The notes under the pieces were generated by a model. It worked only from the letters and a program-made list of their open reading frames with translations. It had not been told where the DNA came from and ran no database searches. The position numbers and the translations under genes are program-made. Of a stretch of DNA of 64,000 nt, positions 51,350 through 54,342 are shown one piece after another (the stretch's first letter is position 1; each line of letters begins with the position of its first letter). The stretch is from Escherichia phage EO1: sequence record OQ223305.1; one strand, given 5' to 3'.

Positions 51350-51422
51350 TGGGAATTAGCCAAGTTGGTAAGGCACTGGATTTTGATTCCAGGATGCAAA
51401 GGTTCGAGTCCTTTATTCCCAG
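51350..51422 (+). tRNA. tRNA-Gln (anticodon UUG)
   Basis: Hand-folded cloverleaf: acceptor TGGGAAT/ATTCCCA, anticodon stem CTGGA/TCCAG with loop TTTTGAT, T-loop GGTTCGAGTCC. Confidence 0.8.
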
Positions 51423-51423
51423 C

Positions 51424-51510
51424 GCGAGAATGGTCAAATTGGTAAAGGCACAGCACTTAAAATGCTGCGGAATGATTTCCTTGTGGGTTCGAGTCCCACT
51501 TCTCGCACCA
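51424..51510 (+). tRNA. tRNA-Leu (anticodon UAA), type II, CCA encoded
   Basis: Acceptor GCGAGAA/TTCTCGC, anticodon loop CTTAAAA, long variable arm, GGTTCGAGTCC T-arm, 3' ACCA. Confidence 0.8.
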
Positions 51511-51515
51511 AATTT

Positions 51516-51589
<74 letters not shown>

Positions 51590-51635
51590 ATTTATGACTC
51601 GTCGTGAGACGCTCAGTTCTTTATTAGGGACTGAT

Positions 51636-52244
51636 ATGCATTTTTATCTTTATAAAATAACAAATAAAATTAATAATAAAGTTTATATTGGTGTGCATTC
51701 TACCGAAAATTTAGATGATGGATATATGGGTTCTGGCAAATTATTAAAAAGAGCCCAAGACAAGTATGGTATAGAAAATTTCTCTAAAGAAATATTAGAG
51801 TATTTTGATGATAAAGAATCTATGCTTGAAGCCGAGAAAAATATTGTCACAGAAGAGTTTTTAAATAGACCAGACGTGTATAATTTAAAACTTGGCGGTG
51901 AAGGTGGATGGGACCATATAAATAATTATCCTATGACAGATCAGCAACGTGAATTAATTTCATTGGGTGTTAAAAAGGCGCATTCTAACGGAAAATTAAA
52001 AGGATGGTCTTCAAATGGATTAATGAAGAATGGCTTTGCTGGTAAAACTCATTCTCAAGAAGCTAAACGTAAAATAGCAAAAGCAAACGAAGCAAAAGTT
52101 TCTGCGGATGAAAGAAAAAGAAGAATAGAAATTTCTAAATTATATGATTTTTCTAAGCGTGGTGAATTATCTAAATATGCTAAGCATATTGGCGTAAGTC
52201 ATACTCAAGCAAAAAGAATTCTAAATCAAATTAACAATATATAA
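51636..52244 (+). CDS. segB: GIY-YIG homing endonuclease (SegB-like) inside the tRNA cluster
   Basis: GIY-YIG motif near the N-terminus (YLYKITNKINNKVYIGVHSTEN) and a basic C-terminal DNA-binding region. ATG at 51636 with AGGGA RBS is preferred over the track start at 51594, which abuts tRNA-Gly. Confidence 0.75.
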   Translation: MHFYLYKITNKINNKVYIGVHSTENLDDGYMGSGKLLKRAQDKYGIENFSKEILEYFDDKESMLEAEKNIVTEEFLNRPDVYNLKLGGEGGWDHINNYPMTDQQRELISLGVKKAHSNGKLKGWSSNGLMKNGFAGKTHSQEAKRKIAKANEAKVSADERKRRIEISKLYDFSKRGELSKYAKHIGVSHTQAKRILNQINNI

Positions 52245-52249
52245 TATTT

Positions 52250-52339
52250 GGAGGCGTGGCAGAGTGGTTTAATGCACCGGTCTTGAAAACCGGCAGTCGC
52301 TCCGGCGACTCATAGGTTCAAATCCTATCGCCTCCGCCA
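52250..52339 (+). tRNA. tRNA-Ser (anticodon UGA), type II
   Basis: Acceptor GGAGGCG/CGCCTCC, anticodon stem CCGGT/ACCGG with loop CTTGAAA, long variable arm, 3' GCCA. Confidence 0.8.
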
Positions 52340-52344
52340 GTTTT

Positions 52345-52420
52345 GCTGATTTAGCTCAGTAGGTAGAGCAACTCACTTGTAATGAGAATGTCGGCGGTTC
52401 GATTCCGTCAATCAGCACCA
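52345..52420 (+). tRNA. tRNA-Thr (anticodon UGU)
   Basis: Acceptor GCTGATT/AATCAGC, D-arm TAGCTCAGTAGGTAGAGC, anticodon loop CTTGTAA, 3' ACCA. Confidence 0.75.
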
Positions 52421-52421
52421 A

Positions 52422-52496
52422 GGCCCTGTAGCTGGAAGGTTCAAGCAAGCGACTCATAATCGCCAGATGGTGGTTCAATTCCACCCAGGGCCACCA
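52422..52496 (+). tRNA. tRNA with CAU anticodon (Met, or lysidine-type Ile as annotated in T4)
   Basis: Acceptor GGCCCTG/CAGGGCC, anticodon loop CTCATAA, T-loop GGTTCAATTCC, 3' ACCA. Confidence 0.75.
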
Positions 52497-52509
52497 AATT
52501 AAGAATTAA

Positions 52510-52596
52510 GGGGAGTTATCCCGTAGAGGTAGCGGTGTGGACTGTAAATCCATTGTCATTGCGACTCGGGTGGTTCGACTCCATCACTCCCCACCA
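52510..52596 (+). tRNA. tRNA-Tyr (anticodon GUA), type II
   Basis: Acceptor GGGGAGT/ACTCCCC, anticodon region ACTGTAAATC identical to the bacterial tRNA-Tyr loop, long variable arm, 3' ACCA. Confidence 0.75.
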
Positions 52597-52600
52597 ATTT

Positions 52601-52675
52601 GGATGTGTAGCTCAATGGCAGAGCGATCGCCTGTTAAGCGATTGGTTATAGGTTCGAATCCTATCACGTCCGCCA
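52601..52675 (+). tRNA. tRNA-Asn (anticodon GUU)
   Basis: Acceptor GGATGTG/CACGTCC (one G-U pair), anticodon stem ATCGC/GCGAT with loop CTGTTAA, T-loop GGTTCGAATCC, 3' GCCA. Confidence 0.75.
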
Positions 52676-52789
52676 AATTTGTGACAACTGTCACATTAAT
52701 ATCTACTTGACGCGATTATAGGGGTTGAACTGATCACTCTTCTCTTAATTTCGTGTGAAGACATCTTGATTGTTGGAGTAGGTATTAAT

Positions 52790-52865
52790 GTGGCCGTAGT
52801 TCAGTTGGTAGAACTCGAGATTGTGATTCTCGTAGTCATGGGTTCGACCCCCATCGGTCACCCCA
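52790..52865 (+). tRNA. tRNA-His (anticodon GUG)
   Basis: Acceptor GTGGCCG/CGGTCAC, D-arm GTTCAGTTGGTAGAAC, anticodon stem CGAGA/TCTCG with loop TTGTGAT, 3' CCCA. Confidence 0.75.
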
Positions 52866-52869
52866 ATTA

Positions 52870-52945
52870 CGGGGCATAGCTCAGAAGGAAGAGCAAGGAC
52901 CTTCTAAGTCCTAGGTCGTAGGTTCGATCCCTACTGCCTCGACCA
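52870..52945 (+). tRNA. tRNA-Arg (anticodon UCU)
   Basis: Acceptor CGGGGCA/TGCCTCG, anticodon stem AGGAC/GTCCT with loop CTTCTAA, T-loop GGTTCGATCC, 3' ACCA. Confidence 0.8.
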
Positions 52946-52963: not shown

Positions 52964-53314
52964 ATGAAAGGTAATGTTTATTTAGTAGTTCATGATTTAA
53001 CATTTTACTTCAATGAATATGAAAAACATATCTCATTTCGTGAAATTAATTTACTTTATCAACACGCGGATTATATTTATATTCAAAACGAATTTGGTCA
53101 TTGGCAATTTCTCAAAAATCGTTCATTTGGCTTAGATGGTTACGAATACTTTGAACGTAAAGACCTTTTAGATAAAATTCCGTTATCTACGCAATATCAA
53201 AATCACAAATCTTTATATAAATGCCGTCCAATTCGAAATGTTGAATCCGCGTATGAAGCAATTGATTTATGGCGTGAACGCCGTAAACAGATTTATGCTT
53301 TAAAAGAATATTAA
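52964..53314 (+). CDS. hypothetical protein
   Basis: 116-aa ORF with GTGAGGAA RBS, right after tRNA-Arg. Confidence 0.45.
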   Translation: MKGNVYLVVHDLTFYFNEYEKHISFREINLLYQHADYIYIQNEFGHWQFLKNRSFGLDGYEYFERKDLLDKIPLSTQYQNHKSLYKCRPIRNVESAYEAIDLWRERRKQIYALKEY

Positions 53315-53623
53315 GAAGCCGGGTCGCTACCGGTAAGTCGTCGGACTGATGTTCCCTGAGTAAGGAATTGCGTTAATAATCTTTGCGTTTATTGATGCCC
53401 TCTTACATCACAGCAGAAACGGCGCACCGAATTATCGATTCGAGGAAATATCTTTGCCGTAAGCCGAGTAGCGTTTTTGACGGAACGTTCGGATATGGTC
53501 GAGATATGGCCTTTTAAAAATATTGAGTAGCGTCAACTGCTTAATAACCGGGTTCGAATCCCGGCGTTTCGTACAAACACTTGCCTTAGCAGGTGGAACC
53601 CCGACAAGGTTGCCGCAAGGCTT
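53315..53623 (+). ncRNA. candidate structured stable RNA / tRNA-like element (unclassified)
   Basis: About 310 nt with no ORF of 60 aa or more on either strand and visibly GC-richer than flanks. Contains a canonical T-arm (CCGGG-TTCGAAT-CCCGG, 53548-53564) whose 3' flank CGTTTCG can pair with CGGAACG at 53481-53487. Ends at a strong terminator. Confidence 0.3.
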
Positions 53624-53651
53624 AGCCCCGACCGAAAGGTTGGGGCTTTTT
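53624..53651 (+). terminator. rho-independent terminator (copy 1 of a repeated hairpin)
   Basis: AGCCCCGACC-GAAA-GGTTGGGGCT 10-bp stem followed by TTTTT. 25 nt are identical to 54191-54215. Confidence 0.8.
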
Positions 53652-53701
53652 GGTATAAATATAGTAGTATATTAAATCCACGAATTAAAACAGGAAATAA
53701 G

Positions 53702-54175
53702 ATGAAATCATATACTCAATTTTTAAATGAAGCGGTGTTAAATGAAGCATCTAGCACCGAAATTCAAGCTGTCGCAAAAGCAGCCATTGCAGCGGGTAAA
53801 TATTCTTATAAAGATGCTTCTGATGAATCGCGATTCCAGTTCGCACGCGACATGAAAGCGGAAGGATTTACGGGAAATGCAGTTAGTATGGCCTGGAAAA
53901 GTTTAGTTGCTACTGGCGCTGCTTTTGCAAAGGCTTCGGGTAAACCTGCTCCTAAAGCAGATCCTAAAGCTGCACAAGAAAAAAATATTGTTAAAGGAAT
54001 TATCGCTAAATATGAAGCTATCCTTAAAGAGCTTTTAGTAATCAAAACCGAAGGCCAAAAGCTAGCTCGTGCTTATAGTTTCAAAGATAACCCACATGCT
54101 CATGACCTAGAGTATGTTGAAGATCTCCAAAAAATCATCAAAGACCGCATTTGGTCTGCTAAACAAATCAAATAA
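53702..54175 (+). CDS. internal protein (IP) family member with capsid targeting sequence; Ala/Lys-rich
   Basis: 157-aa ORF. N-terminus MKSYTQFLNE-A resembles the IP capsid-targeting consensus with an LxE cleavage motif. AGGA RBS. Bracketed by two copies of the same terminator. Confidence 0.55.
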   Translation: MKSYTQFLNEAVLNEASSTEIQAVAKAAIAAGKYSYKDASDESRFQFARDMKAEGFTGNAVSMAWKSLVATGAAFAKASGKPAPKADPKAAQEKNIVKGIIAKYEAILKELLVIKTEGQKLARAYSFKDNPHAHDLEYVEDLQKIIKDRIWSAKQIK

Positions 54176-54182
54176 CATTCTT

Positions 54183-54211
54183 AGCCCTAGCCGAAAGGTT
54201 GGGGCTTTTTG
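54183..54211 (+). terminator. rho-independent terminator (copy 2 of the repeated hairpin)
   Basis: AGCCCTAGCC-GAAA-GGTTGGGGCT followed by TTTTT. Confidence 0.8.
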
Positions 54212-54342
54212 GTATCTAGGCCTTTCCAGGCCTCTCTAGACATCATTTAGTTTCTACCCTTTATAATATATTATCCTATCCTTTGATTTCCCCTCCCTGC
54301 CCTAGAATTCCCCAAAACTTTTTAAAAATTTTTCACAAAACT

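Follow-up and report, generated by a model that had tools for sequence, protein, structure and literature searches.

The window analysed here comprises 64,000 nucleotides (nt) of Escherichia phage EO1 (OQ223305.1), and the element in question is a block at 53315-53623, next to the tRNA cluster of this T4-like phage. The block, together with the hairpin that follows it, very probably consists of the EO1 copies of rnaD (species 2 RNA) and rnaC (species 1 RNA) of T4, the 3' trailer, and the terminator of the tRNA cluster. The finding is a rediscovery, as both RNAs have been known since the 1970s and are textbook T4 biology. The features are listed below by window position; residues of rnaC are numbered with position 1 at window 53435.

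53311-53428, + strand: rnaD (species 2 RNA) homologue, 118 nt; T4 counterpart at NC_000866 71053-71171
53318-53334, + strand: 5' hairpin of rnaD, with a 5-base-pair (bp) stem (G)CCGG/CCGG(U) and 7-nt loop GUCGCUA, supported by covariation
53429-53435, + strand: spacer GAAUUAU, which forms the rnaC 5' leader and puts U at position -1; a 6-nt gap in the T4 records
53436-53572, + strand: rnaC (species 1 RNA) homologue, 137 nt encoded between the first acceptor base and the discriminator U, both included
53436-53442, + strand: 5' strand of the acceptor stem, CGAUUCG (rnaC 2-8), paired with 53565-53571 (131-137)
53443-53512, + strand: long, irregular hairpin of ~70 nt (rnaC 9-78) that takes the place of a D arm, with a 3-bp basal stem
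53477-53482, + strand: hexaloop 1, UUGACG, capping the long hairpin, the exact reverse complement of hexaloop 2
53513-53520, + strand: single-stranded A/U-rich linker UUUAAAAA (rnaC 79-86), 8 nt, unpaired in all folds
53521-53546, + strand: arm 2 (rnaC 87-112), a 10-bp stem with hexaloop 2, CGUCAA, at 53531-53536, supported by covariation
53548-53564, + strand: canonical T arm (rnaC 114-130), 5-bp stem and loop UUCGAAU, 100% of alignment cells paired
53565-53575, + strand: 3' strand of the acceptor stem, CGUUUCG (53565-53571), discriminator U (53572) and ACA (53573-53575), from the alignment
53576-53623, + strand: 3' trailer of the primary transcript with small hairpins, folding together with the terminator (z = -3.8)
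53624-53652, + strand: intrinsic terminator ending the tRNA-cluster transcript, 10-bp stem with seven GC pairs, GAAA loop and T run

The basic properties given in an initial annotation of the block were borne out. The block is free of long open reading frames (ORFs), the longest being 44, 50 and 34 amino acids (aa) with TTG starts only. Its GC content is raised, at 0.42-0.45 across 53250-53700 compared with 0.28-0.38 in the adjoining protein-coding DNA, and comes close to that of the tRNA cluster (0.45-0.49). The T arm CCGGG-TTCGAAT-CCCGG and the hairpin CCGG-GTCGCTA-CCGG lie at 53548-53564 and 53319-53333, exactly where they had been placed, and the strong terminator was confirmed at 53624-53647, followed by a T run. 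ARAGORN called ten tRNAs at 51350-52945 and none within the block. A search with all 4227 Rfam models at gathering thresholds matched only those tRNAs and nothing in the block, in agreement with the statement that it holds no standard tRNA with clean D and anticodon arms. Below threshold (E <= 10), the best block match scored 16.6 bits with tRNA-Sec, whose gathering score is 47, and neither rnaC nor rnaD has a family in Rfam release 15. The guess that the block is a homologue of the two stable T4 RNAs proved correct upon alignment to T4 rnaD and rnaC; the alternatives offered with it, a tRNA-derived pseudogene and a new structured RNA, found no support. The view of the block as one element failed, for it is made up of two independent RNAs, a trailer and a terminator.

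The T4 RefSeq record NC_000866 carries two misc_RNA features right after tRNA-Arg, namely rnaD ("small, stable RNA; species 2 RNA") and rnaC ("species 1 RNA"). The order rnaD, rnaC, terminator downstream of the tRNA genes was the same in the EO1 window as in T4, and a three-way alignment of the EO1 window, T4 and RB69 was nearly invariant from the CCGG hairpin through the terminator. EO1 is a phage of the Tequatrovirus type. Altogether 805 phage records matched the block, mostly with 90-100% identity. The EO1 rnaD differed from T4 rnaD at ~4 positions in 119 nt (~96-97% identity), and nhmmer returned a single match in the window, 53312-53428, with E = 3.6e-36. Its 5' end, which overlaps the stop codon of the ORF at 52964-53314, was placed by homology only. 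The EO1 rnaC had two mismatches to T4 rnaC (NC_000866 70908-71046) in 139 nt (~98.6% identity) and scored 165.4 bits with a covariance model, as compared to 166.4 bits for T4 itself; this was the sole match in the window. Each RNA is present once, with no second copy of either in the window.

The RefSeq T4 coordinates would put rnaC at 53435-53573. In GenBank X03016, species 1 RNA lies one base inside each RefSeq end, which corresponds to C53436-U53572 (137 nt), beginning with the first base of the acceptor and ending with the discriminator. The same record gives species 2 RNA the end ...CACCA and labels the T4 counterpart of the terminator "pot. terminator". In T4 and EO1 alike, the two RNAs come in the same order with a 6-7 nt spacer, and the tRNA operon closes with the same trailer and terminator. 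They differ at the end of rnaD, where T4 encodes CCA and EO1 encodes CCG, and upstream of it: rnaD abuts tRNA-Arg in T4, whereas in EO1 an ORF of 116 aa (52964-53314, + strand; PHROG 3355, similar to RB69ORF150c) is inserted between the two, as in RB69 and T2. The spacer motif (AAUUAU, AACAAU or AAUAAU) was retained whether the upstream neighbour of rnaC was rnaD or a tRNA.

The structure of rnaC was analysed with 36 distinct homologues that span about ten T4-like phage genera and include IMG/VR and metagenome contigs; the sources were Tequatrovirus, Mosigvirus, Gaprivervirus, Karamvirus, Kanagawavirus, Gelderlandvirus, Moonvirus, Mosugukvirus and Marfavirus as well as Edwardsiella and Citrobacter phages. 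The minimum free energy (MFE) of rnaC was -50.2 kcal/mol (z = -4.55), a stability reached by 0 of 200 shuffles, and single-sequence folds of nearly all homologues yielded the same four-way junction. With the MAFFT alignment (32 distinct sequences), 92.1% of the cells were paired and 18 of 37 pairs had changes on both sides; shuffles were as good in 0/500 cases on four measures and in 13/500 on a fifth, and slid controls gave 35-46%. The model-fitted alignment of all 36 sequences, which is biased towards the covariance model by construction, had 90.8% of its cells paired and changes on both sides in 34 of 54 pairs, with 0/500 shuffles as good on all five measures and slid controls at 39-47%. 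Covariation analysis across T4-like genomes had been proposed as a check by the initial annotation; when it was run, the structures of both RNAs were found to covary.

We observed that rnaC is a mimic of the tRNA "top half", with a terminal acceptor stem stacked on a canonical T arm, and a discriminator U. The tRNA-like part had earlier been seen as a domain at the 3' end only. This was wrong: CGTTTCG (53565-53571) pairs with the RNA's own 5' end, CGATTCG (53436-53442), and therefore the whole of rnaC is closed by its own termini in the manner of a tRNA. The acceptor pair 4-135 was GC in 19, AU in 16 and GU in one of the 36 sequences and was never broken. The tandem mismatches U5.U134 and U6.U133 were kept in 35/36 sequences, and because of these two conserved mismatches only 72% of the acceptor cells were paired. 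PM2 alone has A-U in place of C2-G137 and U-A in place of both mismatches, three compensatory changes in all.

The long hairpin was formed by each homologue folded alone. On the model-fitted alignment, 16 of its 20 pairs had changed on both sides (90% of cells paired), and five of the six pairs of its apical stem covaried even on the MAFFT alignment. The basal stem (9-11/76-78), which adjoins GG 53508-53509, contained one compensatory change. The linker varied among the homologues in both length and sequence. In arm 2, changes on both sides were found in nine of ten pairs, with 94% of cells paired. The middle pair of the T stem was GC in 17 sequences, UA in 17, AU in one and UG in one, and the UUC of the T loop was invariant outside the CIP9 lineage. 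The 3' tail read UCCA in 7/32 homologues (Marfavirus, PM2) and UACA in all others. Among the side observations, the Enterobacter phages CIP9 and MY742 form the only lineage with an altered T loop (UGCAUGC instead of UUCGAAU) and also the sole one in which G74 of the otherwise invariant GGCC beside the basal stem is changed to C. This co-change, one event, would fit an elbow-type contact between the GG and the T loop, for which it is a weaker hint.

The two hexaloops are complementary at all six positions (6/6 pairs), and 99.5% of the cells pair overall. Both loops were constant across genera save in the Marfavirus lineage, which has UUGGCG and CGCCAA (A46-U99 changed to G46-C99); PM2 retains four of the six pairs. 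Moreover, the unconstrained MFE structures of several homologues use the complementarity as a helix. The loop sequences point to a kissing contact, which may form within one molecule or between molecules. The TTGACG sequence was also considered as a sigma-70 -35 box and rejected, because no acceptable -10 element was found at 16-18 nt on either strand in a check made partly by eye.

Turning to rnaD, it is an independent structured RNA with covarying pairs. All 24 distinct homologues (24/24) folded to a common architecture, composed of the conserved 5' hairpin, a long irregular hairpin and conserved internal loops. The closing stem uses the conserved 3' end ...ACGGCGCACC, and the distal hairpin is hypervariable, occurring in four or more versions that are unrelated in sequence. 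In the 5' hairpin, the closing pair was AU in 12, GU in four and GC in four of 20 sequences, in which the other four pairs and the loop were constant. RNAalifold yielded 23 consensus pairs, of which five had changed on both sides. The RNA has neither a T arm nor a terminal acceptor stem and is therefore not tRNA-like. Two further candidates were set aside. The hammerhead-like CUGAUG...GAAAC of rnaD was judged by eye to have its strands paired in a two-helix internal loop with no three-way junction, and Rfam returned nothing for it. A contact of the GUCGCUA loop with UAGCG motifs of rnaC would comprise 5 contiguous bp only, with the rnaC partners in stems, and was judged to be chance.

The two RNAs are separable modules, some genera carrying only one of them. 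Both were found in Tequatrovirus, Mosigvirus and Gaprivervirus. In Dhakavirus (JS10, IME281), rnaD, the trailer beside it and the terminator are kept and rnaC is cleanly absent, the junction running from ...GGCGCACCGA directly into ACACTTGCC.... Karamvirus, Gelderlandvirus and the Citrobacter phage Ursula carry rnaC alone, within the tRNA cluster and right after tRNA-Trp; in Kanagawavirus (the CIP9 lineage) and Moonvirus, rnaC comes after a tRNA-Met-type gene. Judged by identity among the records, rnaD is far less conserved than rnaC, as rnaC was >=99% identical in 490/745 records and rnaD in 74/735. In Marfavirus-type loci (L052, L053, L060, L069, L071-L073) we also noted a conserved element of ~60 nt (GGGGUGG...CCCACCCC) upstream of rnaC, between it and a tRNA-Met-like gene. 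It ends in GCGGCCCACC, similar to the rnaD 3' end ACGGCGCACC, and may be a miniature rnaD analogue.

A strict motif pattern had 0 matches in 185,579 bacterial and archaeal genomes, 12 in metagenomes and 18 in IMG/VR, the long contigs among them being T4-like in size. BLAST with four divergent queries reached Enterobacterales phages only. The covariance model gave its homologues 111-167 bits, and the next matches <=30 bits. Distant rnaC paralogues were sought in 517 kilobases of fetched loci and rejected: the matches, again <=30 bits, were ordinary tRNAs where inspected (e.g. L029), and the rest coincide with annotated tRNA genes.

As reported for T4, transcription traverses the entire tRNA cluster and terminates downstream of the species I gene, and the transcript, spanning the whole cluster, is therefore a precursor of the tRNAs and both RNAs (PMC2330249). 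RNA-seq and Northern blot detected T4 RNAC and RNAD as late RNAs "of yet unknown functions" (PMC9697503), and a 2010 review likewise gave the roles of both as unknown (PMC3014915). In the maturation pathway that we propose, the two RNAs would be released from the polycistronic tRNA precursor. RNase P would make the rnaC 5' end at 53436, preceded by position -1, which is usually U. The 3' end would be trimmed to U53572 (...CGUUUCGU), and the host CCA-adding enzyme would then add CCA. The acceptor/T-arm minihelix is in all likelihood a standard substrate for both enzymes, and the relatives that encode UCCA most likely show the intended 3' end of rnaC. With 137 encoded nt and three added (CCA), the product would be 140 nt long. 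The T4 rnaC and rnaD have a common precursor, and RNase III cleaves T4 species 1 RNA in vitro. The 140 nt expected here would match the length that Paddock and Abelson are said to have given for species 1 RNA in 1975. A kissing contact of the two hexaloops would lock the body of the mature molecule.

Lacking an anticodon arm, rnaC would be unable to decode. That it is so extremely conserved suggests a role as a stable mimic of a tRNA end, and we tentatively propose that a factor recognising tRNA acceptor/T-arm ends could bind it late in infection, with rnaC acting as a stable ligand or decoy. A fuller model, which we hold to be rather unlikely as a whole, would make rnaC an active tRNA-end mimic and not a relic. 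RNase P and the CCA-adding enzyme would mature it, and loop pairing would lock or multimerise its body. It might then act late as a decoy or sponge, its targets being host immunity effectors that attack tRNA acceptor/CCA ends, or be a chargeable, non-decoding aminoacyl carrier, and rnaD might be a second host-range RNA. The carrier option was considered because of the discriminator U73, C1-G72 and G2-C71. The suggestion for rnaD derives from its hypervariable distal hairpin and from a 2025 evolution experiment in which a T4-like phage adapted to ECOR34 acquired one convergent single-nucleotide polymorphism, located in rnaD, in all lines (PMC12685909).

One other explanation of the block builds on the pairing of CGTTTCG with CGGAACG (53481-53487), drawn by the initial annotation, with correct coordinates, as a 7-bp acceptor-like stem (rnaC 47-53/131-137). 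It can indeed be drawn here, but it is not the conserved pairing and has no compensatory change in the relatives. Pair 49-135 was unpaired in 14/32 sequences and pair 50-134 in 10/32, and a two-sided change occurred in one sequence at one pair and otherwise in none. We rejected this stem, which fails covariation and clashes with the covarying apical stem, where its 5' strand belongs. This artefact also accounts for the tRNA calls that ARAGORN and several GenBank records place on the rnaC 3' ~95 nt. In favour of a genuine, decoding tRNA that has this internal acceptor and a long variable arm are those very calls on the homologous stretch, as tRNA-Lys in G4507, tRNA-Met in PG7 and tRNA-Phe in Pet-CM3-4 (called stretches in the fetched loci: L004 1546-1639, L003 1546-1640, L005 1546-1641), the weak 16.6-bit alignment to Rfam tRNA-Sec, and the fact that the 7-bp pairing can be drawn in T4-type sequences. 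Nevertheless, the "anticodon" changes from phage to phage and sits in the variable linker 53513-53520, ARAGORN is silent here, the Rfam score is far under threshold, and T4 species 1 RNA is annotated with a mature 5' end 45 nt upstream of the internal stem, at the first base of the terminal acceptor. With the stem broken in so many relatives, we find a decoding tRNA highly improbable. We give practically no credence to the idea that the block codes for small proteins, despite the one or two hypothetical coding sequences annotated here in many GenBank records. The ORFs present are <=50 aa long and TTG-initiated only, close relatives differ by one-base indels, substitutions are dominated by base-pair covariation, and either half of the block can be missing.

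Alternatively, rnaC might be a decayed tRNA gene, still processed and a functionless, neutral by-product of the tRNA operon. Its acceptor and T arm are tRNA-like, it lies in or beside tRNA clusters in every genus examined, its loss in Dhakavirus is traceless, and T4 mutants deleted for the tRNA region can grow on laboratory hosts. We nonetheless consider decay improbable: little DNA in the region is as conserved as rnaC, its non-tRNA parts (the long hairpin, arm 2 and the hexaloops) are under compensatory change in about ten genera, and a pseudogene would not retain invariant complementary loops. A role in cis also seems doubtful to a high degree, either as a 3' platform for stabilising or processing the tRNA precursor or with the TTGACG...CGTCAA inverted repeat as the DNA site of a protein. 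The position at the operon 3' end, beside a structured trailer and terminator, would suit it, as would the retention of the trailer even where rnaC is lost, and the covariation of the loops also keeps the inverted repeat in the DNA. However, rnaC of Karamvirus, Gelderlandvirus and Moonvirus lies within the tRNA cluster with more tRNAs downstream, and is therefore no 3' cap. Each half-site coincides exactly with the loop of a covarying RNA stem, and the T4 RNAs accumulate as discrete stable species (PMC9697503).

We must also note several points that weigh against the main explanation given here. The acceptor stem contains two conserved U.U mismatches, and T4-type genomes encode ACA, not CCA, after the discriminator; CCA addition is deduced from annotation arithmetic and the length given for T4 species 1 RNA. 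The covariation between the loops reflects a single evolutionary event and would equally keep an inverted repeat at the DNA level. When folded alone, rnaD is no better than its shuffles (z = -1.36). Dhakavirus has no rnaC, and Karamvirus and others have no rnaD, so neither RNA is essential. Finally, in the literature through 2025 no paper was found that assigns a function to either one.

Several other features of the neighbourhood were recorded. The tRNA set at 51350-52945 comprises Gln, Leu, Gly, Ser, Thr, Met, Tyr, Asn, His and Arg. As compared to T4 (Gln, Leu, Gly, Pro, Ser, Thr, Ile, Arg), EO1 is without Pro and Ile and has Met, Tyr, Asn and His in addition. Between tRNA-Gly and tRNA-Ser lies an ORF of 216 aa (51594-52244, + strand), whose N-terminus (...FYLYKITNKINNKVYIGVH...) resembles a GIY-YIG (Seg-type) homing endonuclease; T4 segB occupies a different site. 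The first terminator is followed immediately by a T4 late-promoter motif, TATAAATA, at 53654-53661, and the same motif occurs inside the tRNA cluster at 51917. The terminator hairpin at 53624-53647 has a near-identical counterpart at 54183-54206, with an exact 25-nt repeat (53632-53656 and 54191-54215), and the two hairpins flank an ORF of 157 aa at 53702-54175 (PHROG 2280).

Both RNAs touch a question about fifty years old, as reviews and omics papers up to 2025 still describe them as "of unknown function". What is added here is a covariation-backed structure of rnaC, the loop-loop complementarity, and the modular distribution of rnaC and rnaD. The comparative model offers experimental handles in the terminal acceptor with its tandem U.U, the discriminator U followed by (A/C)CA, the complementary and covarying hexaloops, and the independent gain and loss of the two RNAs among genera. 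Public records systematically misannotate the locus, with tRNA-Lys, tRNA-Met or tRNA-Phe placed over rnaC homologues and "hypothetical protein" coding sequences over rnaC and rnaD, and Rfam is without both families.

Among known RNAs, the pRNA of phi29 resembles rnaC in having two mutually complementary, covarying hairpin loops in one phage RNA. The likeness is an analogy only, and T4 packaging is not known to use RNA. The RNase P-processed, tRNA-like small RNAs and the bacterial, Y-RNA-like YrlA are, like rnaC, stable and non-decoding and have a borrowed acceptor/T-arm geometry of tRNA, with which they can use tRNA-processing enzymes. They have no sequence or Rfam relationship to rnaC, and the termini of YrlA form a Ro-binding stem, not an acceptor; E. 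coli is not known to have a Ro orthologue.

The tRNA-like domain of transfer-messenger RNA (tmRNA) also combines a terminal acceptor stem and a T arm with a large non-tRNA body. In contrast to tmRNA, rnaC has no G3.U70, the alanine identity pair (the third acceptor pair is A-U or G-C), no reading frame for a tag and no series of pseudoknots, and is only 137 nt long. Membership in tmRNA or another Rfam family was considered and rejected: ARAGORN found no tmRNA, Rfam gave no tmRNA match at E <= 10, and there were no matches beyond chance.

Canonical tRNA (RF00005) differs from rnaC in the body. In rnaC, the D arm and the anticodon arm with its 7-nt loop are replaced by the ~70-nt hairpin, the 8-nt linker and the 10-bp arm with a 6-nt loop, the acceptor contains the tandem U.U, and the family score is not reached. 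What rnaC shares with tRNA is the 7-bp acceptor formed from the termini, the 5-bp T stem with the UUCGAAU loop, the one-nucleotide discriminator with the (A/C)CA tail, and the place among tRNA genes; the weak cross-matches of the rnaC covariance model, too, go to tRNAs.

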